A DNA stretch of 64,000 nucleotides from Clostridia bacterium. Its GTDB lineage: Bacteria; Bacillota; Clostridia; Oscillospirales; CAG-272. The position numbers were made by a program, and so were the translations under genes. Below, piece by piece: positions 2,843 through 62,960 of the stretch. Every line of letters starts with the position of its first letter. The stretch's first letter is position 1. The notes under the pieces are model-generated. The model was not told where the DNA came from. It saw nothing but the letters and a program-made list of their open reading frames with translations, and did no database searches. The stretch is from positions 17,106-81,105 of the forward strand of contig JAFXGC010000182.1 of assembly GCA_017513325.1 (NCBI GenBank). The letters run 5' to 3'.

Positions 2843-5266
2843 TTAACCCTTGATAAGTCTCTCGATATTCCAGATGCGGTCAGCATATTCCTTAATGCTT
2901 CTGTCAGCGGCAAACTTGCCTGCACCTGCACTATTATAAAGAGATCTCTTGTTCCATTCCTTCTGGTCTGCATATACGCGGGCAACTTCCTGCTGAGCCT
3001 TTCTGTAGGACTCAAAGTCTGCCATGCACATGAAGGGATCGGAGTGGAGCAGATATTCAGCGATGTGTGAGAAGGACTCGCCGTTATATCCTGCGCTGAG
3101 GCTGTTAACAACCTGCTGGAGCACCTGGTTCTCGTGATAGTACTTGGAGCTCTTATAGTCCATTGCATAAACGTACTGAGCTTCTTCTGCTGTGAGACCG
3201 AATGTGAACATATTTGCATCTCCTGCCTGTTCCTTCATCTCAATATTAGCACCGTCAAGAGTACCGATTGTGAGGGCACCGTTGATCATAAGCTTCATAC
3301 AGCCTGTACCGCTTGCTTCCTTACCTGCAAGAGAGATCTGCTCGGAAAGTTCTGCTGCGGGAACGAGAGCTTCTGCCATTGTTACGCAATAGTTCTCAAT
3401 GAATACAACGCGGAGTTTTTCGCTGATTTTCTTATCTTTCGCGATCTCCTGGCTCAGGCACCAAATAAGCTTGATGATCTCCTTAGCCATATGATATCCG
3501 GGAGCAGCCTTTGCACCGAAAATGAATGTTCTGGGCTGGATATCGAGATCGGGGTTTTCCTTGAGCATCTGATACATATGAATGATATTCATAGCATTCA
3601 TAAGCTGACGCTTATATTCGTGAAGACGCTTGATCTGAACGTCGAAGAGAGAATCTGTGTTGAGAACAACACCTGTCTTTTCCTTCATAAGCTTAGCAAA
3701 CTTCACCTTATTCTGAGCCTTGATCTTGCCCAGCTTCTCAAGAACTGCATCGTCATTGGCAAAATTGCGAAGGCCTGCAAGCACTGTGGGATCCTTCTTG
3801 AATCCGTCGCCAACACAATCTGTGATGAGCTTGGAAAGAGCGGGGTTGGAATAGCACAGCCATCTGCGGTGAGCGATACCGTTTGTTACGTTATCGAACT
3901 TTTCGGGCCAGAGGCGATAGAAATTCTTGAATGTGATATCGCGGAGAATACCGGAGTGGATCTCAGAAACGCCGTTTACGTGGTGAGAACCGATGATTGC
4001 AAGGTTAGCCATATGAACCTGGCCGTTTGAAACAACTGCCATTTCAGCAATTCTGTCCCAGTTGCCGGGGAACTTTTCCCAGATCTCGTGGCAGAAACGC
4101 TCGTTGATCTCTTTGATGATCATATAAAGTCTGGGCAGACGGAGACGGAAGATCTCTTCGCCCCACTTTTCAAGTGCTTCGGGAAGAACTGTATGGTTTG
4201 TATAGGAGCATGTGCGGCAAACGATATCCCATGCTGTATCCCAATCCATGCAATATTCATCAAGAAGGATACGCATAAGTTCGGGAACGCACATTGCAGG
4301 GTGTGTATCATTGATATGGATAGCAACCTTATCGGGAAGTGTTTCGATGTTGCCGTATACTGCCATATGGTCACGGATGATGCTCTGGCAGGATGCTGAT
4401 ACCATAAAGTACTGCTGTGTGAGACGGAGAACCTTACCGTCATAGTTATTATCAGCAGGATAAAGAAGCTTACAGATAATATCAGCAGCAAGAGACTTCT
4501 GCGCAACGTTATCGTTGTATCCGCCTGTATAGTCGCCGATAGCGAGGCGCTCGGGAGCTGCTGCTCTTGCCTTCCAAAGACGAAGCTGGGAAACTGCCTC
4601 AGAATCAGCGCCGCTCATCATCATATCATAAGGAACTGCTTCGATTGTTTCGCAGTTATCGTATGCAATAACGTGTCTGCCTTCGTCCCAGAGTTCTCTT
4701 ACCTGGCCGCCAAAGCGTACCTTATAAACTCTGTCCTCACGGGGTGTGAGCCAGATGCCGCCGCCGGGGAGCCAGTTATCGGGAAGCTCAACCTGGTGGC
4801 CATCTATGATTCTCTGCTTAAAGAGACCGTATTCATAGCAAAGGGAGAAACCTGTTGCGGGATAATCGAGAGAAGAAAGGGAGTCGATAAAGCAAGCTGC
4901 AAGGCGGCCGAGACCACCGTTACCAAGACCTGCATCGGGTTCGCAATCATAAAGATCGTCCAGCTTGTGGCCCATAGAAGAGATAGCCTTCTTATAAGTG
5001 TCATCAAGACCAAGGTTACAAAGGTTATTCTTGAGGCTGCGGCCTACAAGATATTCCATACACATATAATATACGCGCTTTGCGCCTTCTTCATTAACCT
5101 TTTTCTTAAATTCCTGACGCTTCGCTGAGAGAATATCGCGAACTGTGAGAGCTGCTGCTTTATACATCTGCTCCTTGGATGCTTCTTCAGGTGTGCATCC
5201 AAAATATCTGGAAAGTTTAGATTCAATGTTAGCCTTTACTTCGGCTGTATTAGGGGTATAATTCAT
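2843..5266 (-). CDS. glgP: glycogen/maltodextrin phosphorylase (GT35)
   Basis: 807-aa ORF. It has the PLP-site motif EASGTGCMKLMINGALTIGTLDGANIEM and the length typical of alpha-glucan phosphorylases. Confidence 0.95.
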   Translation of the reverse strand: MNYTPNTAEVKANIESKLSRYFGCTPEEASKEQMYKAAALTVRDILSAKRQEFKKKVNEEGAKRVYYMCMEYLVGRSLKNNLCNLGLDDTYKKAISSMGHKLDDLYDCEPDAGLGNGGLGRLAACFIDSLSSLDYPATGFSLCYEYGLFKQRIIDGHQVELPDNWLPGGGIWLTPREDRVYKVRFGGQVRELWDEGRHVIAYDNCETIEAVPYDMMMSGADSEAVSQLRLWKARAAAPERLAIGDYTGGYNDNVAQKSLAADIICKLLYPADNNYDGKVLRLTQQYFMVSASCQSIIRDHMAVYGNIETLPDKVAIHINDTHPAMCVPELMRILLDEYCMDWDTAWDIVCRTCSYTNHTVLPEALEKWGEEIFRLRLPRLYMIIKEINERFCHEIWEKFPGNWDRIAEMAVVSNGQVHMANLAIIGSHHVNGVSEIHSGILRDITFKNFYRLWPEKFDNVTNGIAHRRWLCYSNPALSKLITDCVGDGFKKDPTVLAGLRNFANDDAVLEKLGKIKAQNKVKFAKLMKEKTGVVLNTDSLFDVQIKRLHEYKRQLMNAMNIIHMYQMLKENPDLDIQPRTFIFGAKAAPGYHMAKEIIKLIWCLSQEIAKDKKISEKLRVVFIENYCVTMAEALVPAAELSEQISLAGKEASGTGCMKLMINGALTIGTLDGANIEMKEQAGDANMFTFGLTAEEAQYVYAMDYKSSKYYHENQVLQQVVNSLSAGYNGESFSHIAEYLLHSDPFMCMADFESYRKAQQEVARVYADQKEWNKRSLYNSAGAGKFAADRSIKEYADRIWNIERLIKG

Positions 5267-11643: not shown

Positions 11644-12612
11644 ATGAAAACTTTAAAGATTTTGGCATTGGTTCTCGCTTCTGTTATGATGCTCACAATG
11701 TTCGTTGGTTGTGACGTTGCAGATGACGGAAAATATCAGGTTGGTATCTGCCAGCTCACAGAGCACGTTGCGCTCGACGCTGCAACTCAGGGCTTCAAGG
11801 ATGCTCTCGTTGAGGCTCTCGGCGAAGAAAATGTTGAATTTAATTATCAGAGCGCTCAGGGCGACTCCAACACTTGCTCCACAATCTGCAACCAGTTCGT
11901 TTCTGACGGCGTAGACCTCATTCTTGCAAACGCAACTCCTGCTCTCCAGGCTGCGGCAGCTGCAACAAACGAGATCCCCGTTCTCGGCACATCCGTTACA
12001 GAATACGGTGTTGCTCTTGAGATTGAAAACTTCGACGGCACAGTTGGCGGAAACATCTCCGGCACAAGCGACCTCGCTCCTCTGGACAAGCAGGCTGATA
12101 TGATCACAGAGTGGTTCCCCAACGCAAAGAAGGTTGCTCTCCTTTACTGCTCCGCTGAAGCAAACTCCAAATATCAGGTTGACGAAGTTAAGAAGTATCT
12201 TGAAGCTAAGGATATCGAAGCTACTCTCTACTCCTTCTCCGACTCCAACGATATCTCCGCTGTTTGCACAAACGCTGCTAACGAAAACGACGTTATCTAC
12301 GTTCCCACAGATAATGCTGTTGCTGACAACACAGGTATCATCGACAACATCTGCCGTCCCATGAAGAAGCCCGTTATCGCAGGCGAAGAAGGCATCTGCA
12401 ACGGCTGCGGTGTTGCAACTCTCTCCATCAGCTATTACGACCTCGGTAAGACAACAGGCGAAATGGCAGCTAAGATCCTCCGCGGCGAAGCTGACATCGC
12501 TGATATGAAGATCGAATATACAGAAGTTACAAAGAAATATAACGCTGACATCTGCGAAGCTCTCGGCATCACTCCCGTTGAAGGCTATGTAGCAATCGAA
12601 GCAGCTGAATAA
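11644..12612 (+). CDS. ABC transporter substrate-binding lipoprotein (COG2984/BMP-like family), paralog 1
   Basis: 322 aa. It has a signal peptide with lipobox LTMFVGC and sits upstream of a matching permease and ATPase. Confidence 0.8.
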   Translation: MKTLKILALVLASVMMLTMFVGCDVADDGKYQVGICQLTEHVALDAATQGFKDALVEALGEENVEFNYQSAQGDSNTCSTICNQFVSDGVDLILANATPALQAAAAATNEIPVLGTSVTEYGVALEIENFDGTVGGNISGTSDLAPLDKQADMITEWFPNAKKVALLYCSAEANSKYQVDEVKKYLEAKDIEATLYSFSDSNDISAVCTNAANENDVIYVPTDNAVADNTGIIDNICRPMKKPVIAGEEGICNGCGVATLSISYYDLGKTTGEMAAKILRGEADIADMKIEYTEVTKKYNADICEALGITPVEGYVAIEAAE

Positions 12613-12650
12613 TCCCACTATATAAACAATTCTGTAAAAAACATAAACAA

Positions 12651-12687
12651 ATCGGGTGAGAGCTATTCCATTCTCACCCGATTTTTG
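12651..12687 (+). terminator. intra-operon hairpin/terminator between the two binding-protein genes
   Basis: atcgggtgaga (12651-12661) pairs with tctcacccgat (12672-12682), followed by TTTTT. Confidence 0.6.
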
Positions 12688-12738
12688 CTATAATATGCTA
12701 TATTTATAATTTCGCTTTCCAAATGAAAGGATTTTATT

Positions 12739-13689
12739 ATGAGAAAAGCTATAAAAATGTTTTCTCTCCTGCTGGCTTCGGTTTTGATCCTTCCTTTTGC
12801 AGGCTGCACAAACAGCCGCGCAGAATATGAGATAGGTATCTGCCAGTTGGTTGAGCATTCAGCTCACGATCAGGCAACGCAAGGCTTTATGGATGCCTTG
12901 AGCGAAGAACTGGGAGAAGAAAATATCCACTACGATATTCAGAGCGCCCAGAATGATATTTCAACCTGCACCTCTATTATCAACCAGTTCGTTTCCAACG
13001 ACGTGGACCTTATTCTTGCAAACGCAACTGCCGTTTTGCAGGCTGCCGCTTCTGCCACAAGCGATATCCCGATTCTTGGAACTTCCATCACAGAATACGG
13101 TGTTGCTCTTGATATTGAAGATTTCAACGGAACCGTTGGCGGCAATATTTCAGGCACAAGCGACCTCGCTCCCCTCAGTGAGCAGGCGAAAATGATCACA
13201 GAATGGGTGCCGGATGCCAAAAACGTTGCTCTCATCTATTGCTCCGCCGAAGCAAACTCCGACTATCAGGTCAAGGTTGTTGCCGAAGAGCTTGAAAAAA
13301 TGGATATCAAAGCAAATCTCTATCCCTTCGCTGACTCGAACGATCTTGCCGCAGTTTGCCAGAAAGCGGCTGAAGAAAACGATGCCGTATACGTTCCCAC
13401 AGACAACACCGTTGCAAGCAACGCAGGTATCATTGACAACATCTGCCGTCCCCTTAAAAAGGTTGTCATCGCAGGAGAGGAAGGAACCTCCTGCGGCGCG
13501 GCGGCTCTTTCCATCAGCTATTACGATATGGGTTATACTACAGGCAAAATGGCAGCTAAGATCCTCCGCGGTGAAGCTGATATTTCCGAAATGCCTGTTG
13601 AATATACAAACGCTGTTAAAAAATACAACAAAGAGCTTTGCGATGAACTGGGAATCACCGTTCCCGACGGGTATACACCCATAAACTAA
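12739..13689 (+). CDS. ABC transporter substrate-binding lipoprotein (COG2984/BMP-like family), paralog 2
   Basis: 316 aa with lipobox LPFAGC. It is collinear with paralog 1 over its full length and roughly two-thirds identical by eye. Confidence 0.8.
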   Translation: MRKAIKMFSLLLASVLILPFAGCTNSRAEYEIGICQLVEHSAHDQATQGFMDALSEELGEENIHYDIQSAQNDISTCTSIINQFVSNDVDLILANATAVLQAAASATSDIPILGTSITEYGVALDIEDFNGTVGGNISGTSDLAPLSEQAKMITEWVPDAKNVALIYCSAEANSDYQVKVVAEELEKMDIKANLYPFADSNDLAAVCQKAAEENDAVYVPTDNTVASNAGIIDNICRPLKKVVIAGEEGTSCGAAALSISYYDMGYTTGKMAAKILRGEADISEMPVEYTNAVKKYNKELCDELGITVPDGYTPIN

Positions 13690-13723: not shown

Positions 13724-14671
13724 ATGGAATTGATTTCAACTCTTGCCAAAATCCCCGGCGCTCTGCCCGGCGCCTGCGCCCAGGGCCTCATCTGGGGTAT
13801 TATGGCTATCGGTCTTTACTTTACATACCGCATTCTTGAAGTTTCCGACCTGACAGTTGACGGCTCCTTCGCCACAGGCGGCGCAGTTTGTATCGTTCTT
13901 ATGCTCAACGGCTGGAACGTTTGGCTGGCACTCCTTATGGCTTTTATCGCCGGTATGCTCTGCGGCCTTGTTACAGGTCTTCTTCACACAACCTTCGGCA
14001 TCCCCGCAATTCTTGCAGGTATCCTGACTCAGCTTGCCCTTTATTCAATCAATCTGAAAATAATAGGCAAATCAAACCAGTCCATCAACGTTGACAAATA
14101 CGACCTTCTGGTTTCTCTGCGCTGGGTTAAAAAGCTTGCTCTCAACAACCCCCTTCTCACAGTTGTCGTTATCACGATAGTGCTCGTTGCGCTCTTCTAT
14201 TGGTTCTTCGGCACAGAAATGGGATGCAGCATACGTGCAACAGGCTCTAACCTTGCAATGAGCCGCGCTCTCGGTATCAACACTGACAGAAACAAGGTGC
14301 TTGGTATTATGGTTGCTAACGCCCTCGTTGCAACAAGCGGCGCGCTCCTGGCTCAGTATCAGGGATTTGCTGACGTTAATATGGGCCGCGGCGCTATCGT
14401 TATAGGCCTGGCTTCAATCATTATCGGAGAAGCCGTTTTCGGAAAAATATTCAAAAACTTCGCGCTGAAGCTGATCGCAGTTTCTCTTGGCGCAGTTATA
14501 TACTACATAGTTGTTCAGGTGGTTATCACTATCGGTCTCGATGCAAACCTCCTCAAGCTGCTCTCAGCTGCAGTTGTTGCTGTGTTCCTTGCTATTCCTC
14601 ATCTGAAGAGCAAATATTTCGCAAAACCCGTTAAAGTTGTTGAAGAAGAGGGGGAAATTGAAAATGCTTGA
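13724..14671 (+). CDS. ABC transporter permease (COG4120 type)
   Basis: 315 aa, polytopic and hydrophobic, located between the binding proteins and the ATPase. Confidence 0.85.
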   Translation: MELISTLAKIPGALPGACAQGLIWGIMAIGLYFTYRILEVSDLTVDGSFATGGAVCIVLMLNGWNVWLALLMAFIAGMLCGLVTGLLHTTFGIPAILAGILTQLALYSINLKIIGKSNQSINVDKYDLLVSLRWVKKLALNNPLLTVVVITIVLVALFYWFFGTEMGCSIRATGSNLAMSRALGINTDRNKVLGIMVANALVATSGALLAQYQGFADVNMGRGAIVIGLASIIIGEAVFGKIFKNFALKLIAVSLGAVIYYIVVQVVITIGLDANLLKLLSAAVVAVFLAIPHLKSKYFAKPVKVVEEEGEIENA

Positions 14672-15461
14672 CATCAGCAAAGTTTATAAAACCTTTAACG
14701 TTGGAACCGTTAACGAAAAAAGAGTTCTCAAAAATCTTAACCTTCACCTTAACAAGGGCGACTTCGTGACCGTTATCGGCGGCAACGGCGCAGGTAAATC
14801 CACTATGCTTAATATGGTTGCAGGCGTTTATCCCGTTGACAGCGGCTCTATCACAATAGACGGTATCGACGTTACCAAGCTCCCCGAACATAAAAGAGCT
14901 CAGTATATCGGCAGAGTTTTCCAGGACCCTATGACAGGTACTGCCGCTACTATGCAAATAGAAGAAAACCTTGCTCTCGCCGCTCGCCGCGGTAAACCCA
15001 GAGGGTTAAAAACAGGTATCTCCAAGGCTGAACGCGAAAGCTACCGCGAGCTTCTTAAAACTCTTGATCTGGGTCTTGAAGACAGACTTACCTCTAAGGT
15101 AGGCCTTCTCTCAGGCGGTCAGCGCCAGGCGCTTACTCTGCTTATGGCTACTATGAATAACCCTAAGCTCCTTCTCCTTGACGAGCATACTGCTGCCCTT
15201 GACCCCAAAACCGCTCTTAAGGTGCTTACCCTCTCCGCTAAAATCGTTGAGGAAAATAACCTCACTACCCTTATGATCACTCATAATATGAATGACGCTA
15301 TCAAATACGGTAACCGCCTTATTATGATGAGCAACGGTCGTATCGTATTCGATGTAAGCGGCGAGGAAAAACAAAAACTTACTAAGGCTGACCTCCTTGA
15401 AAAATTCAAGATCTCCGCAGGCGAAGAACTTGCAAGTGACAGAGTGCTCCTCTCTGAATAA
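14664..15461 (+). CDS. ABC transporter ATP-binding protein (COG1101 type)
   Basis: Walker A GGNGAGKST, signature LSGGQRQ and Walker B LLLLDEH. I prefer ATG 14664 (RBS gaagaggggg upstream, overlaps the permease stop) over the track's TTG 14637. Confidence 0.9.
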   Translation: MLDISKVYKTFNVGTVNEKRVLKNLNLHLNKGDFVTVIGGNGAGKSTMLNMVAGVYPVDSGSITIDGIDVTKLPEHKRAQYIGRVFQDPMTGTAATMQIEENLALAARRGKPRGLKTGISKAERESYRELLKTLDLGLEDRLTSKVGLLSGGQRQALTLLMATMNNPKLLLLDEHTAALDPKTALKVLTLSAKIVEENNLTTLMITHNMNDAIKYGNRLIMMSNGRIVFDVSGEEKQKLTKADLLEKFKISAGEELASDRVLLSE

Positions 15462-15733
15462 TAAATAATCCCCCATCTGTTTGGTTAAAATTAGTTTATA
15501 AGGATATTCAGGAGGGACCTTTTAAGGAAAGGTCTCCTCCCGAACCCTCCCCCAAACCTCTTTGTAAAAGATCCCCTTCCACCCCCACACAAGTGGGGGT
15601 GGAAGGGGATTTTCTGCGAAAAGGTTTTGAAGGGGGTCCAGGGGGAGAACTTTTCCTCAAAAAGTTTCCCCTTGGATATTCTTACAGATTAACTTAACCA
15701 AACAGATGGGGGATTACTTATTATTCAGAGAAG
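15450..15733. repeat. nested-palindrome intergenic element, family 1, long copy
   Basis: The outer inverted repeat is tctctgaataataaATAATCCCCCATCTGTTTGGTTAA (15450-15488) against its complement at 15694-15733, with 1 mismatch. The inner core has three hairpins, including a perfect 18-bp stem (15571-15588 / 15593-15610). The core recurs at 31.9 and 51.1 kb. Confidence 0.85.
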
Positions 15734-17249
15734 CGTACTCACAAATGAGTTTGTTATGAGCGGAGCGGAATTTGATGGGATCAAATTCCACATCAGTGAA
15801 GCTTCTGAAGCAGGATTCACAAATCTCATCAGCAAGGGGCTTGTTGTGAAGAGCGATAGCGCGCAGCATCTCGTAGTCCTCAGCGGACTCACGATGCATT
15901 TCGAAGCGAGCAGAGATATAGGGCTCATTGTCACCCGGATAAAGAAGCTTGTCATCACCTGCAGGGAGCACACTGCGGCTGCCTGCATTTATATGTCCGG
16001 GACAGCTTGCCCCGTAGGGATCAAGTCCGCCCTGATAATTGTTCACCGACCAATGGAGATAACCTGAGAGATCATACTTGTAGTTAGCCCAGTAAAGATA
16101 TCGTGTTGCAAGAAGGGGAATATCCATAAAACGATTGATATACCCATCGTCTCTCGGATAAAGACAAACATAGTGCCAGACCTCGTCGCCATCCTCCTTA
16201 AAGGTTTCAAAAGCCTCACGGTTTCTTTCAAATTCGTCAGCGCGGGGCACCCAGATGTCAATGGCACCGTAAACAGGGACGTAGGACACCGCATCGTAGA
16301 TCTTTATTTCAGGCAGATATCGCCTTACCATACAAGCAAGAGCTCTGTAGGTCAGCGCGTTGAAACGGTTTGGCTCGTCTGCAATGCCGATGCAGAACAT
16401 ATCATTCTCAAGCCAGCCGTTTTCACGAAGATTTTCCCTGAGCGCAGGGAGATATTTTCTCAAAAAATCATAAGCCTCGTAGGAAAGACCGTCCATTCCG
16501 TGAACGATTATCTCAGGTCCGTCCCAAGAGCGTCTGAAGCCAATGCCGTTTATGTGGAACCCGTTAAAGCCCAGCTCAAGGAGCTTGCGGACGCGGCGGT
16601 TGAAATGGCTGAAATCAAAATGCCACTGACCGTCCTTTTTCCAGATGTGCTCAGGCTCAAGGAAATATCTGTTCTGATGCATTTTGCGAAGCATACTGAG
16701 ATATTTCCCATCCACTTCAAAAAATTCTTCACGACGATCCCGTGGGTCAAGACCGTGCTTTTCTATAACCTGATGAATGCAATAACCCATAGCTATCTTA
16801 AGGGTTTCCTTGGGGAGCTTTCCCTTTACTGTGACTTCAACGGGAATACGCACTTCACTTACACCGTCACTTAATAATATTTCCGTGGAAATATTTTCGC
16901 TTTCTGCCCTAACGGCAAAATAAATCGATGTTACATCATTTTTCTTTTCTATTTTCTCACAGTACGGCTTCATACAGTCGTACACGGAAAAAGGCGCGAT
17001 CCTCTCGGGAAAATGAGGCAAAAAACCGTTTTCAAAATTGGGGTTTGCCTCAACGGGAATGGCAATTTCCTCATATATGTCAGCCCCATCAAGACTTACA
17101 GAGAGAGCATTGTCAAAACCTCTCACTATCACCCTGAATGTTGCATAGCTGCCCGAAAGGGCATAACCTTTATATCCGTCTGTTTCGGAAGCATAATCCC
17201 AAACGTCGGGATAAGTCCACTCACAGCTGTCTATAACTTTGTATTCCAT
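15714..17249 (-). CDS. DUF4091-type (GH123-like) glycoside-hydrolase-like protein
   Basis: 511-aa ORF. Its overall layout and the IGIADEP region resemble DUF4091 proteins. The assignment is from memory only. Confidence 0.5.
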   Translation of the reverse strand: MEYKVIDSCEWTYPDVWDYASETDGYKGYALSGSYATFRVIVRGFDNALSVSLDGADIYEEIAIPVEANPNFENGFLPHFPERIAPFSVYDCMKPYCEKIEKKNDVTSIYFAVRAESENISTEILLSDGVSEVRIPVEVTVKGKLPKETLKIAMGYCIHQVIEKHGLDPRDRREEFFEVDGKYLSMLRKMHQNRYFLEPEHIWKKDGQWHFDFSHFNRRVRKLLELGFNGFHINGIGFRRSWDGPEIIVHGMDGLSYEAYDFLRKYLPALRENLRENGWLENDMFCIGIADEPNRFNALTYRALACMVRRYLPEIKIYDAVSYVPVYGAIDIWVPRADEFERNREAFETFKEDGDEVWHYVCLYPRDDGYINRFMDIPLLATRYLYWANYKYDLSGYLHWSVNNYQGGLDPYGASCPGHINAGSRSVLPAGDDKLLYPGDNEPYISARFEMHRESAEDYEMLRAIALHNKPLADEICESCFRSFTDVEFDPIKFRSAHNKLICEYASLNNK

Positions 17250-30494: not shown

Positions 30495-30712
30495 CTTTTT
30501 TCCTGCAGTGTTTCGTGATAGGGTTGCTAATTGAACCCACAGTTGATTAATGGAGTGAACACTCCGCGTAGGAATGCAGGCCTCCCGACCGCCTCTCTTT
30601 TGACAGACGAATCGGACGTTGGAAGCACAAAGCGCGGACGACGCACACCACCTTGCATGAGCAGGGTTTCACATTGTGACTTTACACGGCACTGCGGGAT
30701 CTTTTCTTTTTT
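30495..30712 (+). ncRNA. ssrS: probable 6S RNA (SsrS)
   Basis: An ORF-free ~215-nt stretch. A closing stem pairs CCUGCAGUG (30502-30510) with CACUGCGGG (30690-30698) and is followed by a U tract. Internal segments CUCCGCGUAGG and GGACGACGCACACCACCUUG...AGGGUU resemble, from memory, E. coli 6S segments CUCCGCGGUUGG and GACGACACAUUCACCUUG...AGGGUU. Confidence 0.6.
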
Positions 30713-30862: not shown

Positions 30863-31135
30863 ATGGGACTTCAAAACACTCTGAAAGCTCTATCCGATCC
30901 CATTCGCCGCGAAATACTTAATATGCTCAAAAACGGACGAATGGCGGCAGGAGAAATCACAGACAGATTTGATATCACGGGTGCGGCAATATCCCGCCAT
31001 CTGTCAGTGCTCAAAGAAGCGGATCTTATTCGCGACAAAAGAGAAGGCAAATTTATATTCTATGAGCTTAACGCCTCAGTTCTTGAGGAAATAATGCTCT
31101 GGATCCACGATCTGAAAGGAGATAACCATGATTAA
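30863..31135 (+). CDS. ArsR/SdpR-family transcriptional repressor
   Basis: MGLQNTLKALSDPIRREILNML is a winged-helix ArsR signature. ATG 30863 follows RBS aaaggagga. Confidence 0.85.
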   Translation: MGLQNTLKALSDPIRREILNMLKNGRMAAGEITDRFDITGAAISRHLSVLKEADLIRDKREGKFIFYELNASVLEEIMLWIHDLKGDNHD

Positions 31136-31766
31136 GAAAAACCTTCCTATGTTGATCATAACATCAATTATAATCCTTATTCCCATTATAGTGGGACTGA
31201 TTCTCTGGAATATGCTTCCTGATAAAATAGCAACCCATTGGAACGTGGAAGGTATCGCCGACGGATTTTCAAGCAAAACCTTTGCCGTTTTCGGCCTTCC
31301 TGCAATTCTTGTTGCCATTCACTGGCTGTGCACATTCATAACAAGTATGGATCCCAAAAGCAAAAATATCGACAGCAAGCCAATGACTCTTGTTTTGTGG
31401 ATATGCCCTGTTATGTCCCTGCTCATAGGCTCTTTGATCTATGCAACTGCTCTCGGATATAGCATTAGCGTTGAAATAATCATGCCTCTTGTAATGGGCG
31501 TTCTGTTTGTGATAGTGGGCAACTATATGCCTAAATGCAAGCAAAATTACTCTATTGGCATAAAAGTGCCGTGGGCTCTTGAAAATGAGGATAACTGGAA
31601 CAAAACTCACCGTTTTGCCGGAATTCTCTGGGTTATTGGCGGAATCATCGTTATGGCAACTGCATTTCTCGGATCATTTTATATCATGCTTCCCATCGTT
31701 TTCATTATGACTTTTGCACCTATGATCTATTCCTATTGCTATTATAAGAAAAACGGTAGTAAATGA
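31128..31766 (+). CDS. SdpI/YhfL-family membrane protein (DUF1648 + SdpI domains)
   Basis: 212 aa and polytopic, translationally coupled to the ArsR-type gene as in sdpR-sdpI. Confidence 0.7.
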   Translation: MIKKNLPMLIITSIIILIPIIVGLILWNMLPDKIATHWNVEGIADGFSSKTFAVFGLPAILVAIHWLCTFITSMDPKSKNIDSKPMTLVLWICPVMSLLIGSLIYATALGYSISVEIIMPLVMGVLFVIVGNYMPKCKQNYSIGIKVPWALENEDNWNKTHRFAGILWVIGGIIVMATAFLGSFYIMLPIVFIMTFAPMIYSYCYYKKNGSK

Positions 31767-31784
31767 AAAACTGCAGTTTGCAGG

Positions 31785-31955
31785 AATAATCGGGGGAACT
31801 TTTTGAGGAAAAGTTTCCCCCCGTACCCCCTCAAAACCTCTTTGCAAAAGATCCCCTTCCATTCCCACAAAAGTGGGGTTGGAAGGGGATTTTCTACGAA
31901 AAGGTTTAGGGAGGGTTTGGGAGGGACCTTTCCTTAAAAGGTCCTCCCAAGTATC
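31785..31955. repeat. nested-palindrome intergenic element, family 1, copy 2 (inverted relative to copies 1 and 3)
   Basis: Its reverse complement aligns with the cores at 15505-15680 and 51050-51215. Central hairpin: atccccttccattcccac / gtggggttggaaggggat (31851-31890). Confidence 0.8.
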
Positions 31956-31973
31956 CCCATAAATTACAATTTA

Positions 31974-33338
31974 TCACTTACCAACGCAGAATCTGGCAAA
32001 TACCTGACTGACGATATCCTCGCAAACGCCGCGTCCGTCAAGCTCACCCATTGAAGAGAGCGCGCTTTCAACCATAGTGCAAGCCGCATCTGCAGGAGCG
32101 CCAAGTCTGAGTGCATCTGCCGCCGCAGTGAGGAGGTCAAGAGAAGATTCAAGAGAAGCTTTCTGGCGGGCGTTCCAGATAACCGCATCGCTGGAAAGGG
32201 ATATTTTTTCGCTGCCCCAAAGCTCAGCAATTGCATCTGTCAGAGCTTCAGCGCCCTCGCCTGTCATTGCAGACATATAAACTGTTTTGTCAAAAACGTT
32301 TTCGGGAATAAGACTGTCGTAAAGCCCAAGGTCCTTTTTGTTGATAACGGCGATCTTTGCCGCTTCAAGCTCCTTGATTTCGGAAATAAGATCTTTTTCC
32401 TCATCTGTCAGAGCGCGGCTTCCGTCGCAAACGAAAATAATAAGCTCAGCCTCTGCCATCTTATCTCTCGCGCGGTCGATACCAACCTTTTCAACCTCGT
32501 CGTCCGCCTCGCGAAGTCCTGCCGTGTCAGCAAGACGAAGTGTTATGCCGCCTGCATCAACAGTTTCCTCAAGAGTATCTCTCGTGGTGCCCGCAATGCT
32601 GGTTACAATAGCCTTCTCCGCGCCGCAAAGACGGTTATACAGAGAGCTCTTGCCGCTGTTAGGGGCTCCGCAGATAACGGTTTTGACACCGTCAGCTACA
32701 GCGTGTCCCGTTTTATATGTGGAAAGAAGCGCTTTAACTTCAGCCGCTCCTTTTTCGATCGTGGGTAGCAGGGTTGTTTCGCCCTCGTCGCCAATATCCT
32801 CGTCGGGATAGTCGATTGCAGCATAAAGCGCAGCAAGCACACCCACAAGGGAATCTCTTATCTCCCCTGTTTTTCTTGCAAGGCTTCCGCCTGCAGCAGA
32901 TGCCGCCAGTTTTCTTCTGCTTTCTGTGTCCGCATCAATAAGTCTGCCAACGGCTTCAGCCTCCGTCAAAGTGAGCCTGCCGTTTACAAACGCGCGGCGT
33001 GTAAATTCACCTGCTTCAGCAAGTCTGGCGCCTGCCCACAGAGCAGCCTCAAGCACCGCCGCAGTTACTGCAATACCGCCGTGGCAGGTTATTTCTGCCG
33101 TTGGCTCGCCTGTATATGAATGACCTTCAGCAAAATAGGTTGCAAGACCTGTGTCCACAACTTCGCCACGCATCACTATTTTTCCGTATACAGCCTTTCT
33201 TTCAGGGAATCCCCCGTTATACATAGGCTGAAATATTTTCTCAAGGCAAGCAAGTGCTTCATCACCGCTGATTCTTATAAGCGCAACTCCGCCCTTTCCT
33301 CTGGGGGTGGAAACTGCCGCGATAGTTTCTCCAAACAT
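31974..33338 (-). CDS. mnmE: tRNA uridine-5-carboxymethylaminomethyl modification GTPase MnmE
   Basis: G1 motif GAPNSGKSS and C-terminal CVGK. I prefer the start at ATG 33338 (MFGETIAAVSTP...) over the track's 33392. Confidence 0.9.
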   Translation of the reverse strand: MFGETIAAVSTPRGKGGVALIRISGDEALACLEKIFQPMYNGGFPERKAVYGKIVMRGEVVDTGLATYFAEGHSYTGEPTAEITCHGGIAVTAAVLEAALWAGARLAEAGEFTRRAFVNGRLTLTEAEAVGRLIDADTESRRKLAASAAGGSLARKTGEIRDSLVGVLAALYAAIDYPDEDIGDEGETTLLPTIEKGAAEVKALLSTYKTGHAVADGVKTVICGAPNSGKSSLYNRLCGAEKAIVTSIAGTTRDTLEETVDAGGITLRLADTAGLREADDEVEKVGIDRARDKMAEAELIIFVCDGSRALTDEEKDLISEIKELEAAKIAVINKKDLGLYDSLIPENVFDKTVYMSAMTGEGAEALTDAIAELWGSEKISLSSDAVIWNARQKASLESSLDLLTAAADALRLGAPADAACTMVESALSSMGELDGRGVCEDIVSQVFARFCVGK

Positions 33339-33408
33339 AGTTATTATTCTATAGGGAGAGGTCTTTTTATACTTCTCCTCAAAACTCCTCAAAATCCTTT
33401 TAGTCGGT

Positions 33409-42801: not shown

Positions 42802-43052
42802 ACACTTTCAGAACGAAAGTGTCATAGTGAGTTACATTTTTGAAACACCATCTCAAAAACAAGAATAATAAGTGATATTGTGAGACAGGTCTCACAGTGA
42901 TATTTTACCTATCGGCAAAGTGGTATTGAAACTTGCAGTTTCAGTGATATTATATTCGCATCCAAAACTGTCCGAAGGACAATATCACTGCGTATCAATA
43001 TCACTCGCCGAAGGCGAATATAACTGAGGCACCTCCGTAAGGAAGGTGCCTC
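42802..43052 (+). repeat. phased 9-mer / variable-hairpin array, copy A
   Basis: GTGATAT-type cores start at 42827 (degenerate), 42872, 42897, 42920 (GTGGTAT) and 42944. Reverse-complement cores ATATCAC are at 42982 and 42998, and ATATAAC at 43018. Small perfect hairpins lie between cores, and a closing hairpin with a GUAA loop spans 43026-43052. Confidence 0.85.
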
Positions 43053-49350: not shown

Positions 49351-49956
49351 TCACTTTTCCCACAGACTTTCCGCTGCAGAGAAAAAACCGTTTTTATCTG
49401 TTAAAAGATTAAGTGCGCCAAGCAGCGCATTGGGCGTCATATCAGAAGGAAGGCCGAAATATTCTGCCATTTCATTTCTTCGCTTCACGCTTCCGTCAGA
49501 GCCCGTCATTCCAACTTCAAAAAAGTCGGCTTTTGTGATGCCGCCAACGTTGCGGCTGTCACCACCAAATATATGTTTATCCGCAAAATCGCTGAAAAGG
49601 TTATAGAGAAGGTCTGTTTCCATTCCTTCAACGCCAAGTGTACCTTCCTTTGATGCGGTTTTCTTTCTTTTTTCTTTTCCCTCAATTTTGGGAATGTACA
49701 GGTTAAATACTTTATCTTTGGGCAGGGCGCTTTTAAGGTGTCCTCTTATAACGCCGCCTGCGCCGTCACTGTCGGTGAGCACAACGACACCGTTTTCGCT
49801 GAGCCTTTTTATAAGCGCCAGTTTTTCCTTGTGATTGAAAATGCTGAATCCGTTTGTTGCGATTATCTGGCAATCGAGAAATTCCGCAAGCTTGGATTTA
49901 TCGTATCTTCCCTCAACGATAACGGGGATGGGAAGCTTTATCTTTTCTCTTGTCAT
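49351..49956 (-). CDS. Toprim domain protein (RNase M5-like, DUF4093-type C-terminus)
   Basis: Toprim acidic motifs PVIVEGRYDK...VVVLTDSDGAGGVIRGHL. It overlaps the holA stop by 4 nt. Confidence 0.6.
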   Translation of the reverse strand: MTREKIKLPIPVIVEGRYDKSKLAEFLDCQIIATNGFSIFNHKEKLALIKRLSENGVVVLTDSDGAGGVIRGHLKSALPKDKVFNLYIPKIEGKEKRKKTASKEGTLGVEGMETDLLYNLFSDFADKHIFGGDSRNVGGITKADFFEVGMTGSDGSVKRRNEMAEYFGLPSDMTPNALLGALNLLTDKNGFFSAAESLWEK

Positions 49957-51005
49957 TTTCTCTTTGCTCCCGTTTTTGAAGGAATGGTGCAGATAAGGCG
50001 CTCAAGCGCGATATAATCAAGACGTGATGTTTTCATGAGCACGTCTGCCTCACGGCAACGGTCTGCTGCGGCACGAAGTCTTGCAGTTTCCGTGTTTCGC
50101 ACAGCGTCCATATAAAGCCCTGCGCGATATTCGTGTATCCTGAGTTTTTTGGCAATTTCTGATTTATCGCATCCGTTTGTCATAAGCAATGAAACGTTGA
50201 GCATATCACACATCGCTTTTGAAACGCTGCCAAGCACCATAGGCGCTTTCTCCTGTCTGCGCTTACAGGCTGCAAGCTCTGAAAGAGCTTTTCTTCTGTC
50301 TACGTTCATAATCGCGTTTGCAAGGGCAAAAGCATTGTCCTCATCGTTTGCAATGGTTATTTCCGAAACAAGATCGTACGTTACACTTCCTAGATTTCTT
50401 GAAAGTGCAGCGGATGCCAGCTTATCAAGCTCTCCCGAAAGGCTGAACATATCCTTTCCGCAGCGCTCGATTATATATTCGGAGGTGCTGTTGTCTATAG
50501 AAATATTGTCACGCGAAAATCTTCTGGTTATCCATTTTTTTAGCTCAGATGGAGTCTGGGCGCAAAAATCAACGGGACTAAATATATTGGAATATATCTT
50601 ATATCCTTCGGAGGCTTTGTTTCTTGCATAATTGCCGGCGTCAAAGCTGTCTCCCGTGGCAACAAGAAGAAATACTGTGCTTTCTGCATCAAAAGATGAA
50701 AAAAGATCGGCAAACTCTCTGTGATCCTTGATCTTTTTGAAATCACAGTAAAGCTCAACGAGTGTTTTATCTGCCATCATTGGAACTGACGCAAGGGCGC
50801 TCTCCAGTTCTTCTACACTGCATTCGCCCCATTTCAGCACGTAATGGTTGAATGCTGCCATCGTTTCATCTTCTCCAAGCACTGCCCGTCGCACTCGTCC
50901 AATATAGAATTTTATAAGATATTCTTCACTGCCAAAAAAGAAATAACTGCCGCTTATCCCTTTCTTTAACTCTGAAACAAATTCGTTGACCGTCATCACC
51001 TTCAC
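49953..51005 (-). CDS. holA: DNA polymerase III subunit delta
   Basis: 350 aa. The N-terminal YFFFGSEEYLI pattern and the length are typical of HolA. Confidence 0.75.
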   Translation of the reverse strand: MKVMTVNEFVSELKKGISGSYFFFGSEEYLIKFYIGRVRRAVLGEDETMAAFNHYVLKWGECSVEELESALASVPMMADKTLVELYCDFKKIKDHREFADLFSSFDAESTVFLLVATGDSFDAGNYARNKASEGYKIYSNIFSPVDFCAQTPSELKKWITRRFSRDNISIDNSTSEYIIERCGKDMFSLSGELDKLASAALSRNLGSVTYDLVSEITIANDEDNAFALANAIMNVDRRKALSELAACKRRQEKAPMVLGSVSKAMCDMLNVSLLMTNGCDKSEIAKKLRIHEYRAGLYMDAVRNTETARLRAAADRCREADVLMKTSRLDYIALERLICTIPSKTGAKRK

Positions 51006-51031
51006 CTCCTGATTTCAAGAATAGATATAAG

Positions 51032-51233
51032 TGATAATCTATCAAGAGATACTCGGGAGGACCTTTTGAGGAAAGGTCCCTCCCGAACCCTCCCCAAACC
51101 TTTTCGCAGAAAATCATTTTCCACCCCTTTTTATAGGGGTGGGAAAATGATCCTGTGCAAAGAGGTTTTGAGGGGGTCCAGGGGGAACTTTTCCTTAAAA
51201 AGTTCCCCTTGGGGATCCCTTGATAAATTATCA
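51032..51233. repeat. nested-palindrome intergenic element, family 1, copy 3
   Basis: Outer inverted repeat TGATAATCTATCAAGAGAT (51032-51050) against ATCCCTTGATAAATTATCA (51215-51233). The arm hairpins and central hairpin (51114-51150) are homologous to copies 1 and 2. Confidence 0.8.
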
Positions 51234-51234
51234 T

Positions 51235-51786
51235 TTATCTTTTTTTGACATTGAATGTCATTTTAGTTCTTTGGGCGGTCATACCTTTAAGTTCGACTGC
51301 GTAATCGAGGGCAATAGAGCCGCCGTTTTCTGTCATATTATTAACAACTTTAATACCGCGCACGCACATTTCCAGGGGGCCATAAGGAGTTCTGTAAACA
51401 CTATAGTGGCGCACGCCTTCTTCGATAACGAAGGAATGGCTCATCTGGCCGTATCTGATAATGGACACGATACCTTTCTGATCATTATCAAAGGAAACGG
51501 AAGTGAGCCAGGGAGGTAGCCCTTCAGCGCCCTCCATATATCTGACGTCGGTTCTTCCGTTTGAAACGGATATTTCACCCTCGCATATCATTTCAAAGCT
51601 TTCATCATTTGACTGCGGCTGAGGCTCCATATCATTTTCAACTGCAAGTGTTTCGAAGAAAGCATCAAAGAGGCTGTCATCGCCCTCAGTTGCATCAAAC
51701 TGAGCGGAGCTTATTTTAATGATAGCGTTAGGGGATATATTATTATCCATTCTGGGTTCATATTCATAGTTAGGCATAAAAATCAA
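51235..51786 (-). CDS. DUF1934 (YwiB-like beta-barrel) protein
   Basis: 183 aa with a C-terminal pattern YRTPYGPLEMCVRGIKV...GGSIALDYAVEL typical of DUF1934. Confidence 0.65.
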   Translation of the reverse strand: MIFMPNYEYEPRMDNNISPNAIIKISSAQFDATEGDDSLFDAFFETLAVENDMEPQPQSNDESFEMICEGEISVSNGRTDVRYMEGAEGLPPWLTSVSFDNDQKGIVSIIRYGQMSHSFVIEEGVRHYSVYRTPYGPLEMCVRGIKVVNNMTENGGSIALDYAVELKGMTAQRTKMTFNVKKR

Positions 51787-60003: not shown

Positions 60004-60172
60004 CACCCGGATAGCTCTCCGCAAAAGCGACAGTCGGAGTGATATTATTCACTCAAACCGGTTCAGCCCCGCACCAAAGGCTGCCCTCGGCACCTGCACC
60101 TTTAACTCAGGCAACGGGCGGTCACCCCTTTAACATCTGAGCTACTCATTGCAAAATGCACCTCTACCGTGT
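60004..60172 (-). promoter_or_regulatory. lysine riboswitch (L-box) controlling dapA-dapB-lysA
   Basis: The minus strand reads GGTAGAGGTGC...GAGTAGC...AAAGGGGTGACCGCC...GGTGCCGAGGG...GGGGCTGAAC...ACTGTCGC...GGAGAGCTATCCGGGTG. The order and spelling match conserved L-box segments. Confidence 0.85.
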
Positions 60173-60323
60173 AGCACAAGTATAGCACACCTTCAAAATC
60201 GTGTCAATATATATTTTTTATATGTAGATAATTTAAACGTTTATTTACCAAAACTATTGTAAAAATTATTTTTATGCTTTAAAATAAAATAAATAATACT
60301 GACCGAAAGGAAAGGTAAATTAT

Positions 60324-62748: not shown

Positions 62749-62960
62749 ATAGTGATATTCTTTGCTGCGCAAAGAGTGATATGATTGCCAACGGCAATCG
62801 TGATATTAAAACCTGCGGTTTTAGTGATATTTTATTCGCCTTTTAAAACTCGCAAAGCGAATAACACTCGGCGTTAGCCGAATATCACTGCGTAGCAATA
62901 TCACTCGCCGCAAGGCGAATAAAACTGCCCAAGTGTTCTTAAGGACACTTGGGCAAAATC
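62747..62960 (+). repeat. phased 9-mer / variable-hairpin array, copy C (best-formed copy)
   Basis: GTGATAT starts at 62752, 62776, 62800 and 62824, exactly 24 bp apart. Each 17-nt interval is a different perfect hairpin. Reverse-complement cores are at 62861, 62882, 62898 and 62919. The closing hairpin spans 62926-62955. Confidence 0.9.

Follow-up and report, generated by a model that had tools for sequence, protein, structure and literature searches.

Doublets of repetitive extragenic palindromic (REP) sequences, the REPINs, are known mainly from Proteobacteria. The BOX, RUP and SPRITE repeats of pneumococci are strongly enriched between convergent genes and near 3' termini, and some of them extend the 3' ends of open reading frames (ORFs) (PMC3049150; PMC3184786). 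SPRITE has an 18-bp stem and a U-rich tract resembling a terminator, and neither a target duplication nor an empty site could be shown for it (PMC3049150). Transposable elements of the miniature inverted-repeat type (MITEs) can change the ends of genes and work as RNA structures or as terminators (PMC3184786; PMC10969869). Template switching homogenises the arms of inverted repeats, inverts spacers and clusters substitutions, affecting up to five neighbouring residues (PMC8604942), and it maintains perfect inverted repeats in bacteria (PMC5941160; PMC7202029). Here, we describe a nested palindrome of 299 bp (positions 15442-15740) in contig JAFXGC010000182.1 of the Clostridia bacterium assembly GCA_017513325.1, of which a stretch of 64,000 nucleotides (called below the window) was analysed. 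The palindrome contains the stop codons of two convergent genes, one for an ATPase of an ABC transporter and one for a DUF4091/GH123 protein.

The interior of the palindrome (15489-15693) is one copy of a non-coding interspersed repeat, which has been present between the two genes since before the sampled Avispirillum-like species diverged. The pattern of differences among orthologous loci shows that the palindrome grew outward from this repeat, and templated copying between the arms would be the mechanism. A resident repeat, outward growth by templated copying and a probable role at the 3' ends of the genes, taken jointly, make up the explanation that we consider probable.

The palindrome and the ends of two genes

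The outer arms (15450-15488 and 15694-15732) are 39 nt each and complementary with one mismatch (A vs G), as a preliminary description of this DNA had it. A repeat finder lengthened the arms to 47 nt with 91% complementarity and four mismatches (Table 1). The 24-nt arm word was found only at these two sites within the window, where shuffled sequences are expected to give 0. Between the outer arms, we observed an imperfect inner palindrome with arms 15520-15588 / 15593-15661 (69 nt, 77% complementary), centred on a perfect stem of 18 bp (15571-15588 / 15593-15610). The core of three hairpins with this perfect stem was thereby borne out, and so was its reported recurrence near 31.9 and 51.1 kb, where copies were located at 31773-31967 and 51034-51231. 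The predicted folding of 15440-15742 had an energy of about -190 kcal/mol on each strand (z about -18.7). An alternative cloverleaf-like fold, with three local hairpins and a closing stem, was nearly as stable (-171 to -175 kcal/mol).

The identical window sequence is present in ENA scaffold ERZ28654013 scaffold_354 and in one Logan contig. Five further independent assemblies have a matching architecture, and the same protein tails occur in independent NCBI metagenome-assembled genomes (MAGs). Therefore, the palindrome is not an assembly artefact.

The ABC ATPase gene ends with CTC TCT GAA TAA in the left arm, and the DUF4091/GH123 gene ends with TCT CTG AAT AAT AAG TAA in the right arm. Both gene ends confirm that one DNA word is read here in two frames. 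Since both stop codons lie in the outer arms, the palindrome does provide the terminal codons and stops of the two genes.

Orthologues elsewhere end differently. The ABC homologues outside the clade (78-91% identical, 264 aa) overwhelmingly have LLS, ILS or MLS before the stop; for example, an element-free orthologue ends with GTC CTT TTG TCC TGA. Every ABC protein of the clade has one codon more (GAA or GAG) and a new stop within the arm, so that it ends with LLSE. The DUF4091 orthologues at 66-76% identity end with EYAK[YW]C, compared to EYASLNNK here. Two of them (L004 and L005 in our numbering of loci, 73% and 66% identity) have other neighbours, with ordinary terminators next to the gene and no element. 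Identical C-termini in element-free orthologues would have spoken against a replacement of native ends; LLS and EYAK[YW]C were found instead.

The earlier proposal that the element replaced both native 3' ends stands in so far as both ends differ from those of element-free relatives. On the other hand, the change is small, with one codon added to the ABC gene and four to six residues changed in the DUF4091 tail, and the arms are not a ready-made part of the element. The DUF4091 tail is also variable in the whole family. Among the DUF4091 proteins of the cluster with at least 90% identity, we observed hypervariable tails (ASLNNK, ASLSNNL, SALSDNL, SALGDK, AALDDK, SALCDNL and SALCNK), whereas the ABC tail was invariant (DRVLLSE in all).

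Three ABC orthologues (L119-L121, 89-91% identical) have nucleoside hydrolase genes downstream. One of them (L119, 91% identical) is followed right after its stop codon by a different, larger related element of ~400 bp (3820-4210), whose end hairpins are variants and which has a long palindrome inside; even so, the ABC protein there ends with LLS. The element-free spacer of 62 bp at L120 (3796-3857) holds CTCTCCAAACCCTTTCG, which is similar to the linker of the repeat modules described below and may be a remnant of a module; the hairpin is absent.

Concerted arms and growth into coding sequence

The same convergent pair with a spacer of ~251 bp holding the element was present at five other loci, making six with the window. 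Three are from Ca. Avispirillum species (L001, L002 and L006, DUF4091 79-83% identical), and two are from MAGs whose DUF4091 proteins fall in the cluster of at least 90% identity with that of the window (L175 and L176, a group ~96% identical to the window's). The identity of the core between orthologous loci was 88-97%, compared to 78-94% for the 3' ends of the flanking genes and ~80-82% for the whole loci. The interior is oriented one way in the window, L001 and L002 and the other way in L006, L175 and L176. This call was unambiguous, with ~93% identity vs ~72% for the wrong orientation.

To compare the arms we used an ungapped register of 34 columns anchored on the coding sequence. Within a locus, the two arms agreed at 27-33 of 34 positions in the six loci, compared to only 12-17 of 26 positions for the left arms of different species. 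At half of the columns (17 of 34), the bases differed between species and both arms had changed together. The arms of the window, L006 and L175 share TAAATAAT(A)CCC, and those of L001 and L002 share TTAAAACTCCACCC. Such residual homology within subclades shows common descent with concerted evolution and not replacement.

A recent step can be seen in the near-identical pair L175 and L176, where the arm grew into the DUF4091 gene after the element was already present. The two loci differ at 47 of 4539 positions, and their non-coding arms are identical. Five of these differences fall within 13 nt at the end of the DUF4091 gene, against a background of ~1%. The L176 gene ends with TCC GCT TTG TGT GAT AAT TTA TAA (SALCDNL and stop), as in the outgroup species, and the L175 gene ends with GCC TCT CTG AGT AAT AAT TTA TAA (ASLSNNL and stop). 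With four of these five changes, the L175 end is an exact reverse complement of the ABC arm at the same locus, CTC CTC TCT GAG TAA TAA TTT ATA A. The window has an equivalent converted tail (GCT TCT CTG AAT AAT AAG TAA), which matches its own ABC arm as well. At one polymorphic arm position (column 9), the window has A in both arms and L175 has G in both; the converted alleles match their own ABC arm in cis.

Copy c3 of the repeat, elsewhere in the window, shows the same phenomenon. Its left outer arm (51023-51046) mirrors 51219-51240, a segment that includes the last codons and the stop of the gene 51235-51786, and at the orthologous locus L111 this left arm is absent. Also, the outer repeats of 24-30 nt at c2, c3, L073 and L083 reach neighbouring stop codons.

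We propose that the presence of the palindrome predisposes the locus to templated copying from arm to arm within one molecule. The route may be template switching of replication at the quasi-palindrome or conversion of short tracts after hairpin cleavage. In each event, one side would be overwritten by the reverse complement of the other side. The outcome would be near-perfect arms, joint divergence of the arms between lineages, a creep into unique flanking DNA and an occasional inversion of the interior. In the clade's ancestor, the ABC gene would have acquired one codon together with a new stop (from LLS to LLSE), and later, in the lineage of the window, the last codons and the stop of the DUF4091 gene would have been overwritten by the mirror image of the ABC end (from SAL... 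to ASLNNK). The copying would halt a few codons into each gene, presumably as longer tracts harm the proteins. The cluster of mirror-making substitutions, the concerted arms and the inverted spacer together match the documented signature of template switching, and the clustered mirror substitutions of L175 and L176 are what is looked for as evidence of this process at quasi-palindromes.

Several observations weigh against this explanation or limit it. It is drawn from comparison, and no event was directly observed. Further small clusters of differences make the L175/L176 region a mosaic; therefore, strain-to-strain recombination also acts there and blurs the direction of change. Over the same period, the interior arms (A vs B) have been only ~77% complementary, so either homogenisation is confined to the outer arms or selection counteracts it in the interior. 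The complementarity of the arms could also be kept up by selection for base pairing. Every one of the 12 mismatches between arms in the six loci is a transition, and 10 of the 12 are G-U compatible on the minus strand (DUF4091 sense), a weak hint of constraint at the RNA level in a small sample (n=12) with some sites under coding constraint. We found no clean syntenic empty site; the relatives compared (L004, L005 and the ABC orthologues L119-L121) differ in synteny. With respect to the role at the 3' ends, a scan of 15462-15713 for the terminator consensus (a GC-rich stem-loop with at least five U) returned no site. After the central stem of 18 bp come TTTTC (plus strand) and TTTTA (minus strand), and it is because only four T follow the stem that no terminator was called within the element.

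The three-hairpin repeat and its family

A profile of full-length copies found exactly three copies in the window, at 15492-15692, 31773-31967 and 51034-51231, and all three have two hairpin modules in inverted orientation. The module hairpin has the sequence GGACCTTTTAAGGAAAGGTCC. Module A reads GGGAGGACCTTT-TAAGG-AAAGGTCCCTCCC followed by (C)CCCAAACC, and module B, a variant of A, reads GGGGGAACTTTT-TGAGG-AAAAGTTCCCCC followed by CTCAAAACC. Each module is self-complementary, and the differences between A and B are compensated locally. Therefore, the form that has been maintained is that of three hairpins, not a long pairing of A with B.

The central hairpin has AAAAG upstream and TTTTC downstream and, judged by these A- and T-tract flanks, looks like a bidirectional terminator. 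Its stem has compensatory differences among copies and orthologues, for example CCTTCC/GGAAGG vs CCGTCC/GGACGG, and in c3 and L073 it is of entirely different sequence. Thus, the central hairpin is kept as a structure only and modules A and B are kept in sequence.

Terminal inverted repeats were present in all copies and consist of modules A and B together with the outer ends (TTAGTTTATAAGGATA / TTAATCTGTAAGAATA). Copies of the c1 type and those of the c2/c3 type have the central segment in opposite orientations; in c2 it is inverted relative to the modules when compared with c1. Two of the three window copies, c1 and c2, fill the entire gap between convergent stop codons. The outer inverted repeat of c2 (31755-31779 / 31962-31986) is weaker and includes both stops.

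The similarity in the family as a whole has its limit at about TAAATTA..TTTAT..GGATA. Copies c1, c2, c3, L073 and L083 each have an outer inverted repeat of their own, 24-47 nt in length (weaker in c2), and these are unrelated between copies and usually extend to neighbouring stop codons. As the arm word is unique in the window and the arms are unrelated between copies, the outer arms are outside the repeat family.

ORFs in the 205-bp core were only spurious ones of at most 50 aa with TTG or GTG starts. Rfam had no matches at the gathering level at c1-c3 or at five related loci, and a permissive search gave only noise of microRNA-precursor hairpins far below the threshold.

Table 1. Features of the palindrome, copies of the repeat and other annotated features of the window
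Feature	Position	Strand	Remarks
ABC transporter ATP-binding protein (PF00005)	14664-15461	+	265 aa; last six codons and stop (R V L L S E, stop) within left arm
Left outer arm	15442-15488		locus-specific DNA, outside the repeat family
Copy c1, ~205-bp interspersed repeat	15489-15693		non-coding; module A left, module B right; nhmmer E 6e-68
Module A hairpin	15511-15540	+	GGAGGGACCTTT-TAAGG-AAAGGTCTCCTCC; DNA fold -10.8 kcal/mol, z -3.8
Module A linker	15549-15558		CCCCCAAACC, downstream of module A hairpin
Central GC-rich hairpin	15571-15610		18-bp perfect stem, 4-nt loop; -24.2 kcal/mol, z -8.5
Module B hairpin	15642-15671	-	sense module on minus strand (GGGGAAACTTTTTGAGGAAAAGTTCTCCCCC)
Right outer arm	15694-15740		inverted copy of 15442-15488, four mismatches
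DUF4091 / GH123_cat protein (PF13320)	15714-17249	-	511 aa; last eight codons and stop (E Y A S L N N K, stop) within right arm
Copy c2	31755-31986 (core 31773-31967)		between convergent genes 31128-31766 (+) and 31974-33392 (-)
Copy c3	51023-51240 (core 51034-51231)		between 3' end of gene 51235-51786 (-) and start of gene 49953-51005 (-)
Tandem paralogous ABC substrate-binding genes (PF04392)	11872-13658		74-79% DNA identity; upstream of permease and ATPase genes
6S RNA gene	30497-30704	+	reaches Rfam gathering score; ~1.1 kb upstream of copy c2
Second Gut-1-like RNA	42959-43026	-	42.5 bits, below gathering 50; E 4.5e-7
Lysine riboswitch	60004-60174	-	reaches Rfam gathering score
Gut-1 match at 62.9 kb	62856-62927	-	

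A scan with the module pattern, one genome per species, gave at least 112 stretches, mostly in MAGs labelled Eubacteriales, Oscillospiraceae, Ruminococcus or Clostridia. Among the matches listed, full-length relatives of 200 bp came only from Ca. Avispirillum MAGs and one Clostridia MAG from deer caecum. Further copies were found at other loci in related MAGs (L041, L067, L073 and L083). Elsewhere (L007-L118, for example L011 3470-3640, L049, L065 and L075), the module is part of three-hairpin units of ~140 nt, in which the module hairpin is followed by a CACCTCCAAACCTTTTT linker, then by a small GTAGCCAYGGCTAC hairpin that covaries and lastly by an inverted module in degenerate form, GTTCTTTCTTCTTAAGAAAGAAC. 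No Rfam family matched this ~140-nt unit. The idea that most of the matches are solo modules was rejected, because they belong to such units with a degenerate second module.

The loop of the module (AAGGAAAGG / GAGGAAAGG) is similar to a Shine-Dalgarno sequence, and the linker (CACCTCC) to an anti-Shine-Dalgarno sequence. Among 69 distinct modules, the lower stem was Watson-Crick paired in 81-96% of cases at positions 1-4 and in 65% at position 5, compared to 27-50% in shuffles; the real modules use two to four pair types per position, with almost no G-T. The module also forms the ends of larger non-coding elements. For example, at L022 (2333-2817) two inverted modules with terminal repeats of ~80 nt surround ~420 nt of hairpin-rich non-coding DNA without a match in Rfam. 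This is a larger, cargo-carrying relative of the element. Modules with GC-rich lower stems of up to 17 bp were also observed in MAGs of Desulfovibrionaceae, another phylum (L010, L017, L034 and L066), where they reflect either horizontal spread or mis-binned contigs.

Signs of mobility were looked for in several ways. Among the matches listed, no recurrent transposase-like ORF was present within 1.5 kb of the modules at 112 loci, and no gene similar to a REP-associated tyrosine transposase (RAYT) was present within 1.5 kb of more than 100 module sites. BLAST against plasmids and phages gave no matches, and a viral scan gave one stray match. In a scan of JGI metagenomes, the outer arm was unmatched and the core word had chance matches only, but this collection is evidently without this clade, which makes both outcomes uninformative. 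A full-text literature search with the module sequence returned no papers. The junctions are AT-rich and themselves palindromic, for example GGTTAA...TTAACC around the element, which makes a direct repeat indistinguishable from an inverted one. The preliminary description had suggested looking for an empty site in relatives, and none was found at the four comparable cross-species loci (c1 with n=6 genomes, c3/L111, L073/L036 and L041/L067); all were occupied in this small sample, with no insertion polymorphism.

Five metagenome contigs end inside the element (L003, L036, L041, L067 and L174); therefore, the repeat breaks short-read assemblies of these genomes. One locus with 98% ABC identity (L172) was left unused, as its right flank is different and the contig stops 40 nt further on, so a chimeric assembly is possible. 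At 1226-1472 it has the left arm with a 3-nt insertion and three substitutions, and unrelated DNA after module B, which reflects either a chimeric assembly across repeat copies or a rearrangement.

Both Gut-1 sites of the window (Table 1) lie among short AATATCACT-type repeats, and the same arrangement was seen at L005 4065-4416.

Possible function, alternatives and described systems

Judged from the sequence, the structure probably serves as a bidirectional transcription stop and, plausibly, as a 3'-end structure for both genes. Each transcript would contain the sense module, then the central hairpin with its A4/U4 flanks and then the closing stem of 25-47 bp, whose U-rich tail would be the complement of the AT-rich stop-codon cluster of the other gene. 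The core is more conserved than the neighbouring genes and shows no insertion polymorphism at four loci, which suggests that the modules are recognised sequence-specifically or otherwise selected. A more far-reaching proposal, which we put forward as rather unlikely, is that the three-hairpin unit is a domesticated, sequence-specifically recognised cassette, widespread in gut Clostridia, that would act as a bidirectional 3'-end or insulator element and be bound by a protein. Its parts would be the inverted conserved modules, the loop and linker with their likeness to Shine-Dalgarno and anti-Shine-Dalgarno sequences, the central hairpin kept as structure only and the self-made closing stem. If so, the palindromic nature of the cassette would systematically remodel the C-termini and stops of the genes that it separates.

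Among the alternatives, a serious one, though on balance unlikely, is that a native bidirectional terminator of unusual length has the outer arms as its stem, the repeat having been inserted into its loop and the pairing being kept by compensatory substitutions. The arms do resemble a terminator, being made up of a run rich in A, a block rich in C with its G-rich complement and a run rich in T (in L001, TTAAAA-CTCCACCC...GGGTGGAG-TTTTAA), and all full-length copies examined carry such arms beside gene ends. The transitions among the arm mismatches, with their G-U compatibility on one strand, fit pairing kept in RNA, and conservation of the core above the flanking genes suggests a function. However, stems of 25-47 bp that abut the element without a remnant of a loop are far above the Firmicute norm of ~10 bp (PMC3049150), and the repeat runs into the coding sequence of both genes. 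The L175/L176 pair has four simultaneous mirror-making substitutions instead of stepwise compensation, and the left arm of c3, missing from its orthologue, mirrors the stop of a neighbouring gene in a context that is not that of a terminator. In another subfamily (L048), the element is positioned beside an ordinary terminator and not inside it, which contradicts insertion into terminator loops as a general rule. The preliminary description had also considered a very long bidirectional terminator that was copied; the core was indeed copied, but the arms were not. We also doubt that the three-hairpin unit, outer stem included, is simply a selected functional RNA or protein-binding DNA cassette, for example an element of the 3' untranslated region, and not selfish. 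The sequence of the module is conserved from genus to genus, loop and CTCCAAACC linker included, pairing in the covarying lower stem is well above that of shuffled sequences, the core is conserved above neighbouring coding DNA, and neither insertion polymorphism at the four loci nor a nearby transposase was seen; in addition, sense modules are located at a median of ~30 nt past co-oriented stop codons. Yet G-U pairs are nearly absent from the lower stem, a point in favour of symmetry in the DNA, the orientation of modules with respect to the upstream gene is only 34 to 25, Rfam had no match, and such a function does not by itself explain mirror copying into coding sequence.

If the element had inserted independently, one way round or the other, into a shared palindromic target in several species, this would account for the opposite orientations in genomes ~96% identical at the protein level and for arms that differ between species, the arms then being those of species-specific terminators. 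The presence of the family in two gut-bacterial phyla also implies that it spread horizontally at one time or another. Nevertheless, we find such a history very improbable. All six genomes with the gene pair are occupied, as are both members at the three other loci testable across species, and every clade member has the one-codon ABC extension. The arms retain homology within subclades. The orthologous cores, at 88-97% identity, are about as close as the nearest copy from another locus (L083, 94% to c1) and closer than the paralogues c2 and c3. The element flips as a unit including its ends, with break points in the arms, as predicted by arm recombination or template switching. Still less credible, to the point of being nearly dismissed, is the view that the whole 299 bp is one mobile element, with stops in its long terminal inverted repeats, which replaced both native 3' ends on insertion. 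All three frames are indeed closed by stop codons in the arms (TGAATAATAAATAA), cases of small repeats that lengthen genes at the 3' end or fuse with that end are documented (PMC3184786), and the outermost repeats of c2, c3 and L073 also include neighbouring stops. But the window has no further occurrence of the arm word and the JGI metagenomes have none (a collection, as said, without this clade), the arms are wholly different among c1, c2, c3, L073 and L083 as well as among the c1 orthologues, and the arm lengthens in situ. Hence, from the earlier suggestion of a palindromic mobile or recombinogenic element, the dispersed core and the recombinogenic locus stand, but the outer arm is not part of a mobile element, being unique in the window and different in every orthologous locus and in every other copy.

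With the resident repeat and outward growth by templated copying as the preferred explanation, the locus is a case, with comparative support, of a resident palindrome that rewrites the stops and the final residues of a convergent gene pair. In this way, amino-acid changes in clusters and seemingly parallel evolution (ASL... tails on two arm backgrounds) would arise without adaptation. This is relevant to reading C-terminal variation and signals of positive selection in proteins derived from MAGs. The repeat family itself belongs to uncultured gut Clostridia; a description was not found in the literature, and it would be worth annotating.

Among described systems, those of pneumococci (BOX, RUP and SPRITE) and bacterial MITEs generally come closest in architecture and position. 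Like the repeat described here, BOX, RUP and SPRITE are non-coding Firmicute sequences shorter than ~200 bp with predicted tight folding (PMC3049150; PMC3184786; PMC10969869), and BOX is similarly modular (boxA-boxB-boxC), with end modules that pair around a variable middle. The comparison was made by architecture and position, not with family models, and no sequence relationship was detectable. The host clade here is uncultured Clostridia, both end modules are self-complementary hairpins with a conserved loop, and the closing stem is locus-specific and made from flanking DNA including gene ends; the papers cited here describe no such stem for those families.

The MITEs (for example Correia/CREE of Neisseria, ERIC, Nezha and RPE) are imperfect palindromes of short length that end in inverted repeats and are multicopy and intergenic. 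The repeat resembles them in being a non-coding sequence of 205 bp, within the size of the class (below ~600 bp), with terminal inverted repeats and three copies per 64 kb. In contrast to MITEs, its orthologous copies are conserved over ~20% genome divergence and are not decaying. Membership in the MITE class is not established, because neither a target-site duplication, nor an empty site at the four testable loci, nor, within 1.5 kb of the modules, a partner insertion sequence was found. REP doublets and REPINs also have two short hairpin units in inverted orientation with a spacer, form a larger hairpin, and are extragenic and multicopy. The modules here differ in being longer (~55 nt), in having a conserved loop and linker, and in having no RAYT-like gene or recurrent transposase near them.

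Bidirectional Rho-independent terminators share with the element the position directly after both stops, the GC-rich stem and the symmetric A- and T-tracts; on a larger scale, the outer stem with its AT-rich stop-codon clusters is similar as well. The differences are the four U after the 18-bp stem, which the consensus scan did not call, and the size of the structure, 300 nt vs ~30-40 nt. The signature of template switching at quasi-palindromes (the Ripley/Lovett model; PMC7202029, PMC5941160, PMC8604942, PMC8794818) matches exactly, with clustered mirror changes, inversion of the spacer between relatives, replacement of several neighbouring residues and recurrence. Known cases mostly have arms shorter than 20 bp and spacers shorter than ~70 bp, compared to arms of up to 47 bp and a structured spacer of ~205 bp here, and the recipient tracts here are the 3' ends and stops of two convergent genes. 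The locus is thus a clear natural example of known processes and not a new kind of system.

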